Virus record (IMG/VR): IMGVR_UViG_3300031673_000017
Span: 1-64,000 of that record
DNA length: 64,000 nt
Reading direction: 5' to 3' (one strand)
Origin: a virus
Taxonomy: Duplodnaviria > Caudoviricetes
In this document: piece by piece, positions 10,478 through 59,582 of the stretch
Layout of the letters: every line of letters starts with the position of its first letter
Position numbering within the stretch: the first letter of the stretch is position 1
Made by a program: the position numbers and the translations under genes
Notes under the pieces: model-generated
What the model was told of the DNA's origin: nothing
The model's input: only the letters and a program-made list of their open reading frames with translations
Database searches by the model: none

Positions 10478-12805
10478 TTATCCAACAACATCTTGAATTT
10501 CATTAGCATTACGCCTCATTATATTTACTACGGTTCGTTCGCCATCACCAGTGCTTAAATATTCTTGAACCATCGAGTAATCCATCACGTTGATTATTTT
10601 TATTGGTGTCTTGCTGCTACCATTGTCGCCTTCAGTTCTTATACCAAGCCGTCCTTGATTGTCTCTTCCTAACGGCATTATTGCTTCTTTTCCGGCTTCT
10701 CCACCTAATCCAATCCCGCCGTTTGACATTGGAAAAATTGTAGGGCTTGCTAAAATATCGCCTTTTGCAAAAGGAACTATAGAGCCATTGCTAAATATAT
10801 TCCCCTTCGCACTTGCTCCCCATGTTCCTGCACCAGCACCAGCACCAGCACCAGCAGCACCAGCACCAGCACCAGCACCAAAAATACCAGCAATTCCGCC
10901 ACCAATACCTAACATTAATTTTACTGATTGGAGCATTAATTCTTGAGCAATCATATCTGCTGCAAGTTGTGCGAAAGATGCTCCAATACTTGCAAAAACT
11001 GAATCCATAGCATCACTGAGACTTTCACCTTCAGTAATCATGTTTTTAAAAGCAGAAGACAAACTTGCTTCTGTTGCATCACCAACACCACCAAGCCCAT
11101 CTAATATAGCCTTTTGCCTATCTGCTTCATATTCCAAAAGGTCATCATAATATCTTGTAGCATCTGATTTCTGAGCTTTTTGATATGCTAATGCTTCATC
11201 TGAAGCTATCTTCATTTCTGTATCAATTTCGCCCTTTTTAGCGGAATACCATTGGTCTAAAAGTTCTTTATCTTTGATGAATGTTGCGTAATCTTCCTTT
11301 TCGTAGTTAAGAAGTTTAAGCCGATTTTCATAACTGGCATTTCCCATCTCACCAAGATCATCATACATCCTTCGGTATGCTTCTGTTTGATCCCTTGCTG
11401 CCTGCTTAATTTTTTCTGCTTCTTCTGCTGCACCAGTGTCTACTTTCGCTGTTGGGATTTGTATAGGCCCAACAAATTCCTTTTCTGCTATATCTTTCAT
11501 TACTGATTTCTGAATTTTAGCAAATTCTTTAGCAGCGTTTACGAGATCGTCAGCCTCCTTTTTCCTACTTAGATTAAATTTTGTAATTATATCTGGCTCT
11601 TCAAGTTGGGCATTTATTTCAGCTTGTGCATTCTTTTGAGCATTGACCATCGATGTCCAACCAAATTTCCACTCTTTAGCAAGCAATGACATACCTTGAA
11701 GCCAAGTATTAACTTGCGGTGCGATTCCCTCACCCAAATCACGTTTGATACTAATCCATAACTCTCTGTTTTTAGCAAGTGCTATCTCAGTTGTAGCAGC
11801 ATTCTTTCGATATGCTATTTCTGCCAGCCCCGCAGCGTTCAATGCTTTTTTATGGTCACCAATTAAAGCTACTACGTTCTTTCTTGTAGCTTCTGATCCG
11901 AGAAGAGCACGAACATTAGGGAATATTGCTGCTGTCTCTTCAATAGTAGCGTTTGCAAGGAGTTGCATTGCTCCAGTCATGCCAATGGTACGCAACGTAT
12001 TTGAGTTTAATTCTAATCCGAATATCTTAGCAGCAGCAACTGCTTCTTTCGTGGGGCTAACAAATCCTGTAAGCATTGCCTTTAATGCAGTCATTGCCAT
12101 GTCTGCATTAATACCCATTCTCGTCATAGTCGCAATGGATGCTGAAACTTCTTCTAACGATAATCCGGCCGTCGCTGCGATAGCTACAACTTTTCCTATA
12201 GAGCCGCCTAATTCTGCAAAGGTTAATTTGCCACCTTTTACAGTAGCGAACAAAACATCACTTACCTTTGTAGCGTCCCCGGCTTCCATACCATAAGCAT
12301 TCATAACAGTTGTAAGTGTATCAGCAGCAACTGCTGTTGTAGTAAGGCCACCTATTGCTGCTTTAGATGCTGCTCTAAGAACACCTACAGCATCTGCTGC
12401 ACCAACAGATGCAGATAGAATATCATATAAACCTTTAGAGAGTGTTTCAGTTGTTTGCCCAAATTCAACTGCTAAACTTGCGAGCTGTGCTTTGTAACCA
12501 GGGAGAAAGTCCATCGTCTGATCATCGAGCATGGTTGAAATATTTGCAAGTTGTGTTTCAAAAGCTGCAAATTCTTTTACTGATGATACTGCAAATCTTA
12601 ATCCTTTATATACTGCAGCAAGTCCAACCATACCTACAGCGAAAGTCTTCATTTGTGTGCCGAGACTTTTGAAAGATTTCTCGTTAGACTTTACACCAAC
12701 ATCGACTTCTTTCGCACTGCGTTTAATTTTCTTAGCAGCATCGTCGAATTGTTTAGCTCCATATTGGGCACGGAGGGCGTTAATGGCAACATCAAGTGAA
12801 GGAAT
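10478..12805 (-). CDS. Tail tape measure protein (TP901-type core, lambda-like C-terminus), probable ATT start at 12805
   Basis: FETQLANISTML...TVKGGKLTFAELGGSIGKV core; C-terminal AKGNIF...PFAKG...GEAGKEAIMPL. The frame is open 51 codons upstream of the track ATG (12652), to ATT CCT TCA CTT GAT GTT GCC ATT AAC (IPSLDVAINA). Confidence 0.9.
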   Translation of the reverse strand: MPSLDVAINALRAQYGAKQFDDAAKKIKRSAKEVDVGVKSNEKSFKSLGTQMKTFAVGMVGLAAVYKGLRFAVSSVKEFAAFETQLANISTMLDDQTMDFLPGYKAQLASLAVEFGQTTETLSKGLYDILSASVGAADAVGVLRAASKAAIGGLTTTAVAADTLTTVMNAYGMEAGDATKVSDVLFATVKGGKLTFAELGGSIGKVVAIAATAGLSLEEVSASIATMTRMGINADMAMTALKAMLTGFVSPTKEAVAAAKIFGLELNSNTLRTIGMTGAMQLLANATIEETAAIFPNVRALLGSEATRKNVVALIGDHKKALNAAGLAEIAYRKNAATTEIALAKNRELWISIKRDLGEGIAPQVNTWLQGMSLLAKEWKFGWTSMVNAQKNAQAEINAQLEEPDIITKFNLSRKKEADDLVNAAKEFAKIQKSVMKDIAEKEFVGPIQIPTAKVDTGAAEEAEKIKQAARDQTEAYRRMYDDLGEMGNASYENRLKLLNYEKEDYATFIKDKELLDQWYSAKKGEIDTEMKIASDEALAYQKAQKSDATRYYDDLLEYEADRQKAILDGLGGVGDATEASLSSAFKNMITEGESLSDAMDSVFASIGASFAQLAADMIAQELMLQSVKLMLGIGGGIAGIFGAGAGAGAAGAGAGAGAGTWGASAKGNIFSNGSIVPFAKGDILASPTIFPMSNGGIGLGGEAGKEAIMPLGRDNQGRLGIRTEGDNGSSKTPIKIINVMDYSMVQEYLSTGDGERTVVNIMRRNANEIQDVVG
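10830..10880. repeat. (GCACCA)4-GCA-(GCACCA)4 microsatellite encoding a Gly-Ala run in the tape measure protein
   Basis: Read directly from the sequence; encodes GAGAGAGAAGAGAGAGA. Confidence 0.95.
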
Positions 12806-36402: not shown

Positions 36403-37950
36403 CTATATCATAATACTTTCACTTGATAGCGTTTCCGCTTCTGTTAAATTTTCGATGTTATCATCTTTTCTATGTTTATTTTCAATGTCTTGCGCTGATT
36501 CTCCTTTTCTTGGAAAATCGCGAAGTTTATGTTTTAATGCTGCTTGTGCTGCTTTCTTAAATTTTCTGTCGCCGTGGAAATAAATATATCTATGCTTTCT
36601 TGACGATTGTTCGAAATAAATTCTATCTCCATATTTAGCTTGTAACTTCTCCCTCATATTCTCCTGCCCTTTAAACTCTGCTAAAATAGTGAGTTCATGG
36701 GCATTCTCTCTTCCGCGTAATTTAAGAGCTTTATGCGTTGTGCTTAATCCTGTATAAACAAAATTCGTGGCTTGATAGACGCAGCCAACATGGTCTTGAG
36801 CCATGTCTGCAAAACTAACTATTATTTTATTCTTTGGAAGCATCTTTATACTTCGCCCAACTAATAAGCTCGCTTCGTTCTTTCTGTTATACTTTAAGCA
36901 TAACCTTGTTAGCTCTATGATGTTTGGCTCAAAAAGTACTCCTGCTATATTGACCCTCAATGGCATACTACTCGTTTCGCCGTATGTTACAACACCGCAT
37001 AATTCATCTTCGTAAAATAAACCGAATGGATAGCTCATCATCGGCATGCGTTTTGCATAATGAATATGCAATAAATACGGTTCACATTCTTGTCTCGTTA
37101 TTCTTTTAACGCAATACTTCTCAGATTGCATTGTACTTTCAAAATCGGGATGCCGGAATCGAACCGGCCCTTCCCCACTGGTGGTGGGGCGTTTCGCCCT
37201 TGAAACCTCTCCCGTATGTGGCAGAATTATATCGTCAAAATCTGCACTTGATATTGTCTCTGCTGACTCACAATTGGAAACATTATCTAATTTGCTAAAT
37301 TTATTCTCTAACTCTTTAATGCTATTTATTCCTTTAGGATAGTCTCGAATCTTATATGTCAATGCTAACATAATTCGTTTCTTAAATTTCCTATCACCAT
37401 GAAGATAAATGTATCTATGCTTCCTTGAATTATCTTCTCTAAATAAATCGTCTCCATACTTCTCACGAAGTTTATCAGTTCTGTTTGGAACGCCTCTAAA
37501 CTCATCCAATAATGTTATGTTATGTAAATGTTCTTTACCTCTTACTTTCCACACACTACCTTTTGTGCTTAAACCAGTGTATAAAAAGTTAGTTGCTTGA
37601 TAGACATATCCAACATGATCCTGCTCTGAATCAGCGTAGCTAACAATTAATTTATTTTTAGGTAAAAGTTTTATACTACGTCCGACGAGAATACTCGCTT
37701 CGTTTTTTCTATTATATTTCAAACAAAGACGATTTAATTCAATTACATATCGCTCATTTTCGTCCCCTGCTATAAATCTTCTGAGTGTTGAACTTGGTGG
37801 CGTTCCGTAAGTTACTACACCACACAACTCTTTGTCTTCACTTGTAAATAAGCCGAATGCCCATGTAATGCTCGGCCATCGATGTGCATAATGGATTCCT
37901 AATATGTACGTCTCGCATTCTTTTCTGGTTATTTGTTTAACAGTGTACAT
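36403..37950 (-). CDS. Mom-like DNA adenine-modification protein, two fused domains
   Basis: Two homologous halves: ITRKECETYILGIHYAHR...LCGVVTYG...IELNRLCL...NEASILVGRSIKLL...VSYADSEQDHVGYVYQATNFLYTG and ITRQECEPYLLHIHYAKR...IELTRLCL...VSFADMAQDHVGCVYQATNFVYTG. Confidence 0.85.
   Translation of the reverse strand: MYTVKQITRKECETYILGIHYAHRWPSITWAFGLFTSEDKELCGVVTYGTPPSSTLRRFIAGDENERYVIELNRLCLKYNRKNEASILVGRSIKLLPKNKLIVSYADSEQDHVGYVYQATNFLYTGLSTKGSVWKVRGKEHLHNITLLDEFRGVPNRTDKLREKYGDDLFREDNSRKHRYIYLHGDRKFKKRIMLALTYKIRDYPKGINSIKELENKFSKLDNVSNCESAETISSADFDDIILPHTGEVSRAKRPTTSGEGPVRFRHPDFESTMQSEKYCVKRITRQECEPYLLHIHYAKRMPMMSYPFGLFYEDELCGVVTYGETSSMPLRVNIAGVLFEPNIIELTRLCLKYNRKNEASLLVGRSIKMLPKNKIIVSFADMAQDHVGCVYQATNFVYTGLSTTHKALKLRGRENAHELTILAEFKGQENMREKLQAKYGDRIYFEQSSRKHRYIYFHGDRKFKKAAQAALKHKLRDFPRKGESAQDIENKHRKDDNIENLTEAETLSSESIMI
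37144..37215 (-). tRNA. tRNA-Gly-like cloverleaf (anticodon ACC), non-canonical, inside the Mom-Mom coding linker
   Basis: ACGGGAG-AG-GTTT-CAAGGGCG-AAAC-G-CCCCA-CCACCAG-TGGGG-AAGG-GCCGG-TTCGATT-CCGGC-ATCCCGA-T. D, anticodon and T stems pair fully; the acceptor has 5 of 7 pairs; no CCA is encoded. Confidence 0.7.
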
Positions 37951-38018
37951 AGCATCTCAGTTTATATTTGCACATGAAAGCTTACAAAAGCACGAGGTAT
38001 TGTGACAAAATTAAACCA

Positions 38019-38720
38019 TCAGATTAAAATATCGTTACTATTTAGTTGTTCTGCTACATCACAAACATTAAAATTATCGATGTTACTTTGAAGCAAGAAT
38101 CGTTTCTTCATCTTCTTATCGAGAATGTACAGAAATCTATACTGAAATTCTTTAGTAATATGTTTGATTCCTTTATAACGTTCTTTAATTATGCTCCACG
38201 TTCGACCACCCGTTTGATGGTAAATAGTAATTGGATGAATTCGCTCCCCATCGGGCATTATGTAAAAGTCAACGTTTACTTTTCCAATTTTAATTGCATT
38301 AGAGGCTTTGTAAATTGTACCGTAGTTCCCAACTGATCCGTCTGCATAAGTTATAACAAATTTAATTCTTTTATGAACTTGTCTAAGATATGACCTCAAT
38401 AAACTTATTACTTGTGTCTCTGAGAATTTTGGTAGCTCGTCGCTTAACCACATTCTATCGAATTCACAAAAGTTTCCTTTCATTATTAGACTCGAAATGG
38501 TATGCTTTTCTTTTGGTTTAATCCCATAGCCTAATTGTAAGAATCCTTTTCCATTATTTACTAAGAAACTTAAGAATCTATTCTTAGTTGCTTTATGTGA
38601 ATAATGATACTTAATAACAAGTTCATCGACTATTGTGCTTGGTGTTTCGATTATCCAATAACTGCCATTGCTAATTCCAATTGGCTTTTTGGTAATTGTT
38701 GAATAGATTAAAGATTTCAT
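38019..38720 (-). CDS. Mom-like protein (third, more divergent domain)
   Basis: VDELVIKYHYSHK...LQLGYG...CEFDRMWLSDELPKFSETQVIS...FVITYADGSVGNYGTIYKASN...QYRFLYIL. Confidence 0.78.
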   Translation of the reverse strand: MKSLIYSTITKKPIGISNGSYWIIETPSTIVDELVIKYHYSHKATKNRFLSFLVNNGKGFLQLGYGIKPKEKHTISSLIMKGNFCEFDRMWLSDELPKFSETQVISLLRSYLRQVHKRIKFVITYADGSVGNYGTIYKASNAIKIGKVNVDFYIMPDGERIHPITIYHQTGGRTWSIIKERYKGIKHITKEFQYRFLYILDKKMKKRFLLQSNIDNFNVCDVAEQLNSNDILI

Positions 38721-38729
38721 AGCATTATC

Positions 38730-38996
38730 TTATTTTCTTGAGCACTTCTCTTTATCTTCTTTGTACTCTTCCCTTTCTTCTTCGCTGAGTTGTGCTAAGA
38801 AGTCGTAACCAAATTTTGTTCCATATTCTTCAGCACCAATGCTGCGTGTATCTGCTTCAATATCGATAATAGGTATTTCTTCTAAGTCCATCGTGTTTAA
38901 TTTTTGTTTTACGAATTTACGAACTCTACGATGGGCTTTACTTTTATCAATGCTATTAGTCATAACATGCATTGGGAATCTTCTACTTCTGCTCAT
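38730..38996 (-). CDS. Small hypothetical protein with a basic N-terminus and an acidic C-terminus
   Basis: MSRSRRFPMHVM...KAHRRVRKFVKQKL...; track ORF. Confidence 0.55.
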   Translation of the reverse strand: MSRSRRFPMHVMTNSIDKSKAHRRVRKFVKQKLNTMDLEEIPIIDIEADTRSIGAEEYGTKFGYDFLAQLSEEEREEYKEDKEKCSRK

Positions 38997-39121: not shown

Positions 39122-40474
39122 TTAAACATCATGACTTGAAAACGTTGCACCACCACCAAATGGATATTCGCGAAACATTTTATATCCCCATCCATCTGAT
39201 ATATGGGTTAATAAACTTTTAATATCTGACTTTTGAATAGAGCCATCATCGTCGCAAGTAACGCCTTCAAAATCTCGTATAAGAAACTTACATTTTTTAT
39301 CGATAATCGTTCCGATGTAACCATCAGCCGCTATGAGCCTACTATTAACTGAATTAATTCTTACACGAACCAGCGGATTTGATTTCTTGTATTTCTTTTC
39401 GCAATTCCATATACTATTAAACTTAGCATCTATGATGTCCCAATCGCTTCCTCTTACTGCTGAGCTTTGCTTAGCTCCACCAGTAGCATCCCCATAAAGA
39501 CGGACATAACCTCTATGTATTTTAGACCATCGCTCTATTAATAAATCGCAAAGCTTTTCTGTATTGCTATCTTGCTGTAAAAATATTTCGTCGATAGCAC
39601 AACTTACTAATCCACGATTCTCTCCTTGATTACGCTTTATTAACCATTTAGGTGCTGGAAGTTCTTGTGATATTACACAGTTTCCTGGAACTCTATTAAA
39701 GTCAAAACAAAAGTCTAATGGATAACTTGGATTGTATAACACCCTTTCGTCTTTTGGAGGACAATTTAATTCATTATTGAACGCATAATATGTTCGGCCT
39801 TTAAATGAAACAAACTCACCGCCATACTCTTGGTTATAAGTTAATGTATCAGAGTCTGCACGAGCTTTTTCTGCTTCTTCTGGATTTATTTCATTAGTAT
39901 GCCATGAGAAAATGTCCCAGTCTTCTTTATCTTTTACATCTTCCGCAAGTTGGAAGTAATGATTTCTACCTTCTGGAACTCCAATTAAATCAGCCCATCC
40001 AGGACGACCTAATGTTGATAATGCTGGTCTTATGTTTTGTCCCCATACTGTTGGCTTAAAGTTTCCAAACTCGTCACCAACAAATCCATCTAATGGTGGG
40101 CCTTCTATTCTTTCTGGTTTATCAAGCCCAAGAACTTCAATAGTAGAGCCATTAAACAGTTTTACTTTTCGAAATGAAATTGATATAGAGCGAAGGCCAT
40201 CATACAATGCCCATCTCGGAACCATTGCAATAGTATCATCCCAGAAAATATCGACAGCTTGGCGATGTGTAGGAGCACCAAATACAAATCGGCCTTGTGG
40301 TAGTTGAAACTCAAAAGCTCTTATAATTAATCTTCGCTTTGCAATTTCTGTCTTACCACCACGTCTTCCAGCATGAGCAATATTAAATCTTGTTTGTGAT
40401 TTAACATATCGTTGCTGTTCAGCATGGTCTTTTAATGGAGTCCATCGAGGTGTGATTGCTTCAGTTACTAACAT
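39122..40474 (-). CDS. terL: Terminase large subunit
   Basis: Walker A AHAGRRGGKTE, Walker B LDGFVGDEFG, LIGVPEGRNHYF, nuclease DFCFDFN...YGDATG...HISDGWGY. Confidence 0.92.
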   Translation of the reverse strand: MLVTEAITPRWTPLKDHAEQQRYVKSQTRFNIAHAGRRGGKTEIAKRRLIIRAFEFQLPQGRFVFGAPTHRQAVDIFWDDTIAMVPRWALYDGLRSISISFRKVKLFNGSTIEVLGLDKPERIEGPPLDGFVGDEFGNFKPTVWGQNIRPALSTLGRPGWADLIGVPEGRNHYFQLAEDVKDKEDWDIFSWHTNEINPEEAEKARADSDTLTYNQEYGGEFVSFKGRTYYAFNNELNCPPKDERVLYNPSYPLDFCFDFNRVPGNCVISQELPAPKWLIKRNQGENRGLVSCAIDEIFLQQDSNTEKLCDLLIERWSKIHRGYVRLYGDATGGAKQSSAVRGSDWDIIDAKFNSIWNCEKKYKKSNPLVRVRINSVNSRLIAADGYIGTIIDKKCKFLIRDFEGVTCDDDGSIQKSDIKSLLTHISDGWGYKMFREYPFGGGATFSSHDV

Positions 40475-59413: not shown

Positions 59414-59483
59414 TAGTTATTCCTTATAAGCATCATTTATCAAATCACTGTGTTCTTTAATTAAATCTTTATAACCAATTTAA

Positions 59484-59567
59484 TGGCCGAGGTGAGAGTC
59501 GAACTCACACACCTATAAAGATATTGGATCTTAAATCCAATGCGTCTGCCAATTCCGCCACTCGGCC
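59484..59567 (-). tRNA. tRNA-Leu(UAA)
   Basis: GGCCGAG-TGGCGGAATTGGCAGACGC-ATTGGA-TTTAAGA-TCCAAT, long variable arm, GTGAG-TTCGACT-CTCAC-CTCGGCC-A; CCA not encoded. Confidence 0.93.
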
Positions 59568-59582
59568 ATGATTTATTTTAAT

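Follow-up and report, generated by a model that had tools for sequence, protein, structure and literature searches.

A conserved tRNA-Gly-like RNA encoded in frame at the junction of a phage Mom-Mom fusion, a possible glycyl donor for DNA hypermodification

Mom of phage Mu is a tRNA-dependent DNA aminoacyl-transferase that uses host Gly-tRNAGly as donor (Silva et al., 2026; PMC13219725; PDB 8bv8). It works with each of the three E. coli isoacceptors but not with Gly-tRNAAla, and the 2026 work, in which tRNA genes in or beside mom genes are not mentioned, assumed that the phage scavenges the Gly-tRNAGly of its host (PMC13219725). Earlier, the mom homologue carried by ssrA genomic islands of Dehalococcoides had been found to contain, in its first 150 bp, a conserved 76-bp tRNA-Gly-like 'pseudo-tRNA', and the same element had been described in the mom homologue of a deep-sea fosmid (McMurdie et al., 2011; PMC3146451); no function was assigned to it, and the tRNA dependence of Mom was then unknown. 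In Staphylococcus aureus, non-proteogenic tRNAGly isoacceptors feed FmhB/FemAB (Rietmeyer et al., 2020), and these extra tRNAs keep the determinants of glycyl-tRNA synthetase (GlyRS), have a low affinity for EF-Tu and supply, outside translation, an aminoacyl-transferase of the GNAT fold (PMC7826273). No paper was found that links a mom-embedded tRNA-Gly-like RNA with the tRNA dependence of Mom. Here, we analysed the first 64,000 bases (bases 1-64000, hereafter the window) of the IMG/VR virus record IMGVR_UViG_3300031673_000017, a genome of 76,669 bp from an uncultured phage (CheckV 100% complete; G+C content, GC, 34.8%), in which a 72-nucleotide (nt) tRNA-Gly-like RNA is encoded in frame between two fused Mom domains. 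An earlier reading of the letters alone (the sequence-only reading) had proposed this RNA as a possible dedicated glycyl donor and had stated, correctly as the published work confirms (PMC13219725), that Mom uses Gly-tRNA(Gly). The parts of the Mom-Mom open reading frame (ORF), which encodes 515 amino acids (aa), are as follows.

36403..37950, minus strand: Mom-Mom ORF, 515 aa, in the order Mom domain 1, tail, tRNA-coded linker, Mom domain 2
37333..37947, minus strand: Mom domain 1, PF25680 at 135.4 bits
37216..37332, minus strand: C-terminal tail of domain 1, AT-rich, with no stop codon before the RNA
37144..37215, minus strand: tRNA-Gly-like RNA, 72 nt, called tRNA-Gly(acc) by ARAGORN; codons 246-269 of the Mom-Mom ORF
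37129..37143, minus strand: U-rich 12-nt trailer (UUUGAAAGUACA) after U73, then ATG (Met274), the ancestral start of Mom domain 2
36511..37116, minus strand: Mom domain 2, PF25680 at 128.3 bits

The 5′ end of the RNA lies on a codon boundary of the Mom-Mom ORF, and its sequence reads TGEVSRAKRPTTSGEGPVRFRHPD. The cloverleaf is its minimum-energy fold both alone (-31.4 kcal/mol) and within 231 nt of mRNA context, with four arms, G18G19 and a canonical T-loop, UUCGAUU. Taken singly, the window sequence gives a weak fold z-score (-1.85). The acceptor stem has five pairs, C2-G71 and G3-C70 among them, and two mismatches, A1.A72 and G7.A66; A8, C14 and C33 stand in place of the usual bases, the anticodon loop CCACCAG carries C33, A34, C35 and C36 (anticodon ACC), U73 is present and CCA is not encoded. 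To our knowledge, the ACC anticodon is essentially unused in bacteria. The RNA is 64% GC, against 25-43% in the rest of the gene and 34.8% in the genome, and is the sole non-repeat island of GC at or above 0.6 in the 76.7-kb genome. The sequence-only reading had pointed out the translated cloverleaf at the Mom-Mom junction, its glycine identity features (C2-G71, G3-C70, C35, C36, the ACC anticodon and U73), its departures from the usual tRNA (A8, C14, C33, the 1:72 and 7:66 mismatches, no CCA) and a second Met, and all of these are present, the last as the ATG of Met274 at 37131-37129, 12 nt past U73. It had also noted a peptide of the alternative frame, and that frame indeed reads ...HQWGRAGSIPASR; its statement that many Mom homologues carry a T-arm peptide GSIP found no support, as GS[INST]P was found in only 1 of 156 Mom relatives (150 library representatives and six close homologues).

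Like the Dehalococcoides pseudo-tRNA, the window RNA is a conserved tRNA-Gly-like cloverleaf on the coding strand of a Mom-family coding sequence. The Dehalococcoides element, however, belongs to an integrative island of a bacterium and occupies the 5′ end of a mom gene with one domain, whereas the window element is from a phage and is encoded in the linker between two fused Mom domains, and, with the two compared by description only, the window RNA differs further in lacking CCA and the 1:72 pair and in its ACC/C33 loop. The enzyme belongs to the same family as phage Mu Mom (PF25680), but Mu has one Mom domain and draws on host tRNAGly, whereas the window phage has two fused domains with a tRNA-Gly-like RNA encoded between them. 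The staphylococcal non-proteogenic tRNAGly embodies, by analogy, the concept that may apply to the window RNA; it is cellular, restricted to staphylococci and encoded by free-standing genes, the acceptor of its glycine is a peptidoglycan precursor and not DNA, and evasion of EF-Tu, which was shown for it, is only suggested here for the window RNA, which has G18G19. tRNA-like modules in longer transcripts that are cut by RNase P and RNase Z are familiar from mascRNA of MALAT1, from mitochondrial tRNA punctuation and from tRNA-mRNA operons such as tufB. The window RNA resembles these in being a tRNA-shaped module in a longer RNA that tRNA-processing enzymes could release, but they are not translated in frame and their amino-acid identity is unmatched to the surrounding enzyme. 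A mom-embedded tRNA-Gly-like RNA (2011), the tRNA dependence of Mom (2026) and the dedicated staphylococcal tRNAGly are therefore known in outline; new are the linker position inside a tandem Mom-Mom fusion and, with it, the ACC/C33 loop.

Conservation was assessed within the clade of the window protein. Two IMG/VR contigs, L001 and L002, also encode this Mom-Mom fusion without interruption (82% and 77% protein identity), and the RNA has the same position in it; ARAGORN called both copies tRNA-Gly(UCC), with U33, and the Rfam tRNA model gave them 34.7 and 31.7 bits, respectively (threshold 29). Two variants known from protein only, P0003 and P0004, have the same linker peptide, and P0003 is likewise an uninterrupted Mom-Mom fusion. 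Among the RNA copies of the window, L001 and L002, 16 of the 72 columns vary. Eight substitutions at paired positions form four compensatory pairs, namely 6:67 (A-U to G-C), 29:41 (C-G to A-U), 31:39 (A-U to G-C) and 51:63 (C-G to U-A), no pair is broken, and the probability of eight variable columns falling by chance into four pairs is 7.9e-5. Several of the compensatory changes are non-synonymous (P/L with R/Q; P/H with G/V), so that the peptide follows the RNA. The identity at the three codon positions is flat in the RNA codons (0.875/0.81/0.775), whereas the Mom domains show the usual protein pattern (0.83-0.86/0.90-0.94/0.55-0.61), and the clade has kept the 1:72 and 7:66 mismatches as well as A8/C14. 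These results indicated that selection acts on the RNA structure and the glycine identity features, not on the peptide. The codon at the anticodon position encodes Ser (UCN) in four of the five clade variants, so C33/A34 of the window is a derived state; it is no one-off read error, because five contigs have the exact 515-aa window protein with its ACC-coding Thr-Thr. P0004 (310 aa, from a Logan contig of 2.4 kb) has nearly all of Mom domain 1 deleted and retains the tail, the RNA-coded linker and domain 2.

The wider family was then sampled at ~310 Mom loci, with ~1.6 Mb around them, using ARAGORN and three covariance models, of which R1 was built from the window clade alone and R2 with L088 added; the models give the window RNA itself 87-100 bits by construction, as it is in their training alignments. 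At the 78 Mom loci nearest the window clade, no Gly-like element was found by ARAGORN and R1. A library search returned a Mom relative, P0112, whose N-terminal AGEVSKK...VQVSNPAP resembles the window linker peptide and whose relatives include L088, an 86-kb phage contig (IMGVR_UViG_3300032069_000005) with two tandem Mom genes and the RNA in the 5′ codons of each. R1 matched both copies at 61.2 bits, in the same reading frame as the window RNA, and this RNA has G1-C72, U73 and an encoded CCA. L088 shares the 5′-embedded layout of the Dehalococcoides pseudo-tRNA, and its RNA is homologous to the window RNA. The two L088 genes (L088:2462-4450) are diverged Mom genes behind identical leaders of about 140 nt that contain the RNA and CCA; judged from the sequence, this looks like a recent duplication or gene conversion of leader and RNA before two different Mom bodies. 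A scan of DNA with patterns for the 5′ half of the clade RNA returned L001, L002 and the L088 contig only, and no such RNA was found among relatives of P0036, which has an N-terminal GFKS.

Free-standing members of the family were found as well. R2 matched a copy with anticodon ACC in L214, 3 nt past the stop of a Mu-like Mom (38.3 bits), and R3, run on eighty relatives of the L214 Mom, returned further copies 3-71 nt past the Mom gene in L243, L310 (65.4 bits), L306 (28.5 bits) and L313, so that free-standing copies at this distance from Mom stops are those of L214/L242, L243, L310, L306 and L313. CCA is encoded in L088, L243, L306 and L313. The copies L242:1909-1983 and L243:2259-2333 are near-identical, follow 98%-identical Mom genes and differ twice, in the wobble base (ACC vs UCC) and in the 3′ trailer (CGA vs CCA), and the L310 copy has A33 and ACC. 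ARAGORN missed all of the distant copies, those of L088, L214, L310 and L306 because their D- and T-loops are deformed. The ordinary tRNAs that it called in the ~1.6 Mb were Arg, Ala, Thr, Met, Gln, Leu, Trp, Asn, His, Pro and one of undetermined type, and outside the window clade it called no tRNA-Gly there. Conversely, every non-canonical model match at the ~310 loci was of Gly type and lay in a Mom ORF or at most 71 nt after it, on the same strand. In an alignment of eight distinct sequences, 94% of cells are paired and both partners have changed in 16 of the 21 pairs, values that none of 500 shuffles reached, although these pair counts are somewhat inflated by the fitting of the family alignments to the model structure. 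Invariant across the eight are C2-G71, C35, C36, A37 and U73, while base 34 is U or A and base 33 is U, C or A. The window RNA fits this Mom-associated tRNA-Gly-like class, defined by a cloverleaf of ~70-76 nt, an NCC anticodon, U73 and a location within or abutting a Mom ORF on its coding strand. The link between RNA and Mom is real and exclusive among the sampled loci, but sparse, with the RNA carried by about 9 of roughly 310; the enrichment of Gly-like cloverleaves with compensatory changes at Mom homologues, which the sequence-only reading had named as a check, was positive. In L306 (2258-2573) and L313 (934-1250), the tRNA-Gly(UCC)-like RNA with CCA lies 29-71 nt past the Mom gene and directly precedes ordinary tRNA genes (Thr, Asn, His, or Thr, His, Pro). 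Tandem Mom genes exist without such an RNA, as L070 (4190-5417) has a pair of adjacent, overlapping paralogues (210 aa each) and no tRNA-like element.

We put at about even the chance that a share of the transcripts is processed to release the RNA, which would then carry glycine to Mom alone and take no part in decoding. That an enzyme travels with its own donor tRNA, as had been suggested from the letters, is supported by the conserved compensatory changes and by the link of the family to Mom; we infer the processing, charging and use by Mom. In such a mechanism, the mom transcript would fold locally into the cloverleaf, and in part of the transcripts RNase P would generate the 5′ end at A1 and an RNase Z-type activity would cleave the U-rich trailer behind U73, whereupon the host CCA-adding enzyme would complete the 3′ end. 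GlyRS would charge the RNA through C2-G71, G3-C70, U73, C35 and C36, and the Mom domains would take the glycine and place it on N6 of adenine in the phage DNA. The 1:72 and 7:66 mismatches, A8/C14 and, in the window, C33/A34 would keep the RNA from EF-Tu and the ribosome, so that it would serve Mom only. Uncut transcripts would be translated through into a covalent Mom-Mom pair, with the 24 RNA-coded residues as a passive linker. The published GlyRS determinants are G1-C72, C2-G70 (as printed), U73, C35 and C36 (PMC7826273). The invariant positions of the family are GlyRS identity elements and its variable ones are those that the ribosome needs, a pattern of fixed and free positions that, as far as sequence comparison goes, fits charging without decoding.

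Several observations weigh against a glycyl carrier. In the window clade, the RNA sits inside an ORF that needs read-through, and L002 has no start codon for domain 2; each excision would thus destroy the message and leave domain 1 stop-less. The clade has also lost the 1:72 pair, a GlyRS determinant, and the CCA that relatives encode. Because of these losses and the cost of excision to the message, the window-clade RNA may be less efficient than that of its relatives, or be used differently. The window copy falls below the Rfam tRNA (RF00005) threshold of 29 bits, its sole listing at a loose threshold being tRNA-Sec at 18.5 bits, and the P0004 peptide points to an apparent G.A mismatch at the T-stem pair 50:62. 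To these are added the model-fitted alignments behind the family pair counts and the about 97% of sampled Mom genes that have no such RNA. Moreover, Mu Mom works with host tRNA (PMC13219725), so the RNA is not required for Mom chemistry. A fuller proposal, to which we give somewhat less than an even chance, is that the same 72 nt serve both as codons of the Mom-Mom linker and as an excisable, non-decoding tRNA-Gly that host GlyRS charges and that enzyme alone uses; each transcript would then choose between enzyme and glycyl carrier, and cutting would yield a stop-less first half and a second half with a short leader. The splitting of the fused mRNA by excision, also raised in the sequence-only reading, would be compatible with the data.

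The RNA may instead be a cis-acting tRNA mimic, at which cleavage by RNase P/Z or binding by GlyRS or Mom would limit or split the expression of a potentially toxic enzyme, with no separate function for the released RNA; a cut would give a stop-less domain 1 message and a domain 2 message with a short leader. The in-frame position in the window clade and L088, which makes processing and translation mutually exclusive, is consistent with this, as are the retention of Met274 12 nt after U73 in four of the five variants, the missing CCA and 1:72 pair of the window clade, and the Mom genes without a Shine-Dalgarno motif in a phage where 47 of 70 long ORFs have one. Mu mom is toxic and under tight control (PMC3378877). 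However, the free-standing copies after Mom stops, some of which head tRNA clusters, are in no position to split a Mom ORF, CCA is encoded by four members of the family, and the invariant C35, C36 and U73 would be unneeded in a mere cleavage signal; we regard this explanation as unlikely, though a cis-regulatory or cleavage role and that of a glycyl carrier could coexist.

Less probable still is an ordinary phage tRNA-Gly(UCC) that aids GGA decoding and whose location between or inside Mom genes is a coincidence. In its favour, the copies of L001 and L002 exceed the Rfam threshold and have U33 and UCC, GGA is used more often than any other Gly codon in the long phage ORFs (375 of 1057), and the L306 and L313 RNAs adjoin ordinary tRNA genes. 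Such a tRNA sits badly, however, with C33/A34 in the window and A33 with ACC in L310, with a base 34 that flips between U and A in near-identical copies, with the conserved 1:72 and 7:66 mismatches and A8/C14, with the deformed D- and T-loops of L088, L214, L310 and L306, and with a link to Mom that recurs across distant Mom clades. The last reading weighed was a decaying tRNA pseudogene or mere peptide linker, in which the first Mom stop was lost and an old intergenic tRNA-Gly became spacer protein. No copy in the clade is as degenerate as that of the window, the domain 1 tail ends where a stand-alone homologue (P0008) stops, and the linker is the lowest-confidence part of a poor AlphaFold model, without predicted secondary structure, all as decay or a spacer would have it. 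But the four compensatory changes, none of them pair-breaking, together with the flat codon-position conservation, lead us to reject both the relic, which the sequence-only reading had kept as an option, and the mere linker; conservation at third codon positions exceeds that of the enzyme domains, amino-acid changes track the RNA pairing and the GC island persists in a genome of 35% GC. Thus, the decoding tRNA is disfavoured and the relic very improbable, and the probability that is left belongs to roles not thought of.

If the glycyl-carrier reading is true, the window RNA would be a second natural dedicated 'non-proteogenic' tRNAGly, after that of staphylococcal cell-wall synthesis, and a rare example of the in-frame overprinting of a protein gene with an RNA gene, and it would account for the 'pseudo-tRNA' annotation unexplained since 2011. 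It would open to direct experiment how phages keep DNA hypermodification supplied without competing with EF-Tu, or independently of the host tRNA set. In practical terms, tRNA finders miss such RNAs, and their codons are mis-read as ordinary protein linkers.

The fusion protein was compared with known Mom enzymes. The 515-aa ORF matched Pfam PF25680 at 255.6 bits in two stretches (cut-off 27.1 bits). Both domains have equivalents of Mu Mom H58/Y59, R111, S124, D149 and Y159, as read by eye from an alignment to 8bv8 and homologues, while the equivalent of Mu Mom R151 is not conserved in the window clade; the motifs IHYAKR, ELTRLCL, RKNEAS, FAD and VYQATNF are common to the two domains. The reading frame is open through the RNA in all five clade variants, and length differences of +6 and +9 nt just upstream of the RNA among the three loci preserve it. 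Met274 is retained in L001, P0003 and P0004 and replaced by ATA in L002, so domain 2 could be made there only as a fusion. P0008, a stand-alone relative of domain 2, ends ...DFNDLII*, matching the point where the domain 1 tail (...DFDDIIL) enters the RNA, and the simplest history would be an ancestral order of mom, tRNA-like RNA and mom in which the first gene lost its stop codon. As Mu Mom is a dimer whose monomeric W48A mutant retains residual activity only, a covalent Mom-Mom pair is plausible. An AlphaFold model of the fusion from a five-row alignment was poor (mean predicted local distance difference test score, pLDDT, of 42.7), with the linker lowest (22-27) and without predicted secondary structure. 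No match to the locus was found by a DNA search of cultured phages, and a protein search of cultured phages returned 275 records with single Mom domains and no Mom-Mom fusion; scans of metagenomes and genomes with the fusion alignment returned only the contig of L001 and single-domain Moms without tRNAs. A different kind of Mom fusion from Mom-Mom is present in P0005, P0006, P0007 and P0011 (about 420-430 aa), in which a Mom domain is joined to an N-terminal Cys-rich region and an HNH-like motif (...HIDHxxPL...NLQPLW).

Going downstream on the minus strand, the order of genes is large terminase, a small ORF, a 233-aa Mom paralogue and the 515-aa Mom-Mom ORF, with the following neighbours.

38019..38720, minus strand: third Mom paralogue, 233 aa, more distant, PF25680 at 133 bits; directly upstream of the Mom-Mom ORF in the same orientation
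39122-40474, minus strand: large terminase, upstream of the Mom genes with one small ORF between

The 233-aa paralogue is present in L002 and absent in L001. A promoter and terminator scan returned nothing exceeding chance, and no terminator close to the RNA. The starts of the 515-aa and 233-aa Mom genes (upstream windows 37951-37975 and 38721-38745, minus strand) both lack a Shine-Dalgarno motif and are preceded by ATGCT, in contrast to the 47 of 70 long ORFs with such a motif (background 4%); no clear Shine-Dalgarno motif was found upstream of Met274 either. No integrase-like ORF is in the ORF list between 35000 and 39500, and an attP-type tRNA fragment was rejected as an identity for the RNA, whose cloverleaf is complete and lies inside an enzyme gene. 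The sole canonical tRNA of the phage is an ordinary, intergenic tRNA-Leu(UAA) at window positions 59483-59568 (minus strand), with 58.4 bits in Rfam; CCA is likewise not encoded there, the trailer being UUA, so the absent CCA of the window RNA is no argument against its processing. The other GC island of the genome, at 10795-10905, was considered as a second RNA and rejected, as it is a simple (GCACCA)n repeat; it lies inside ORF 10478-12652 (minus strand), where it would encode a Gly/Ala-rich run of a 724-aa protein.

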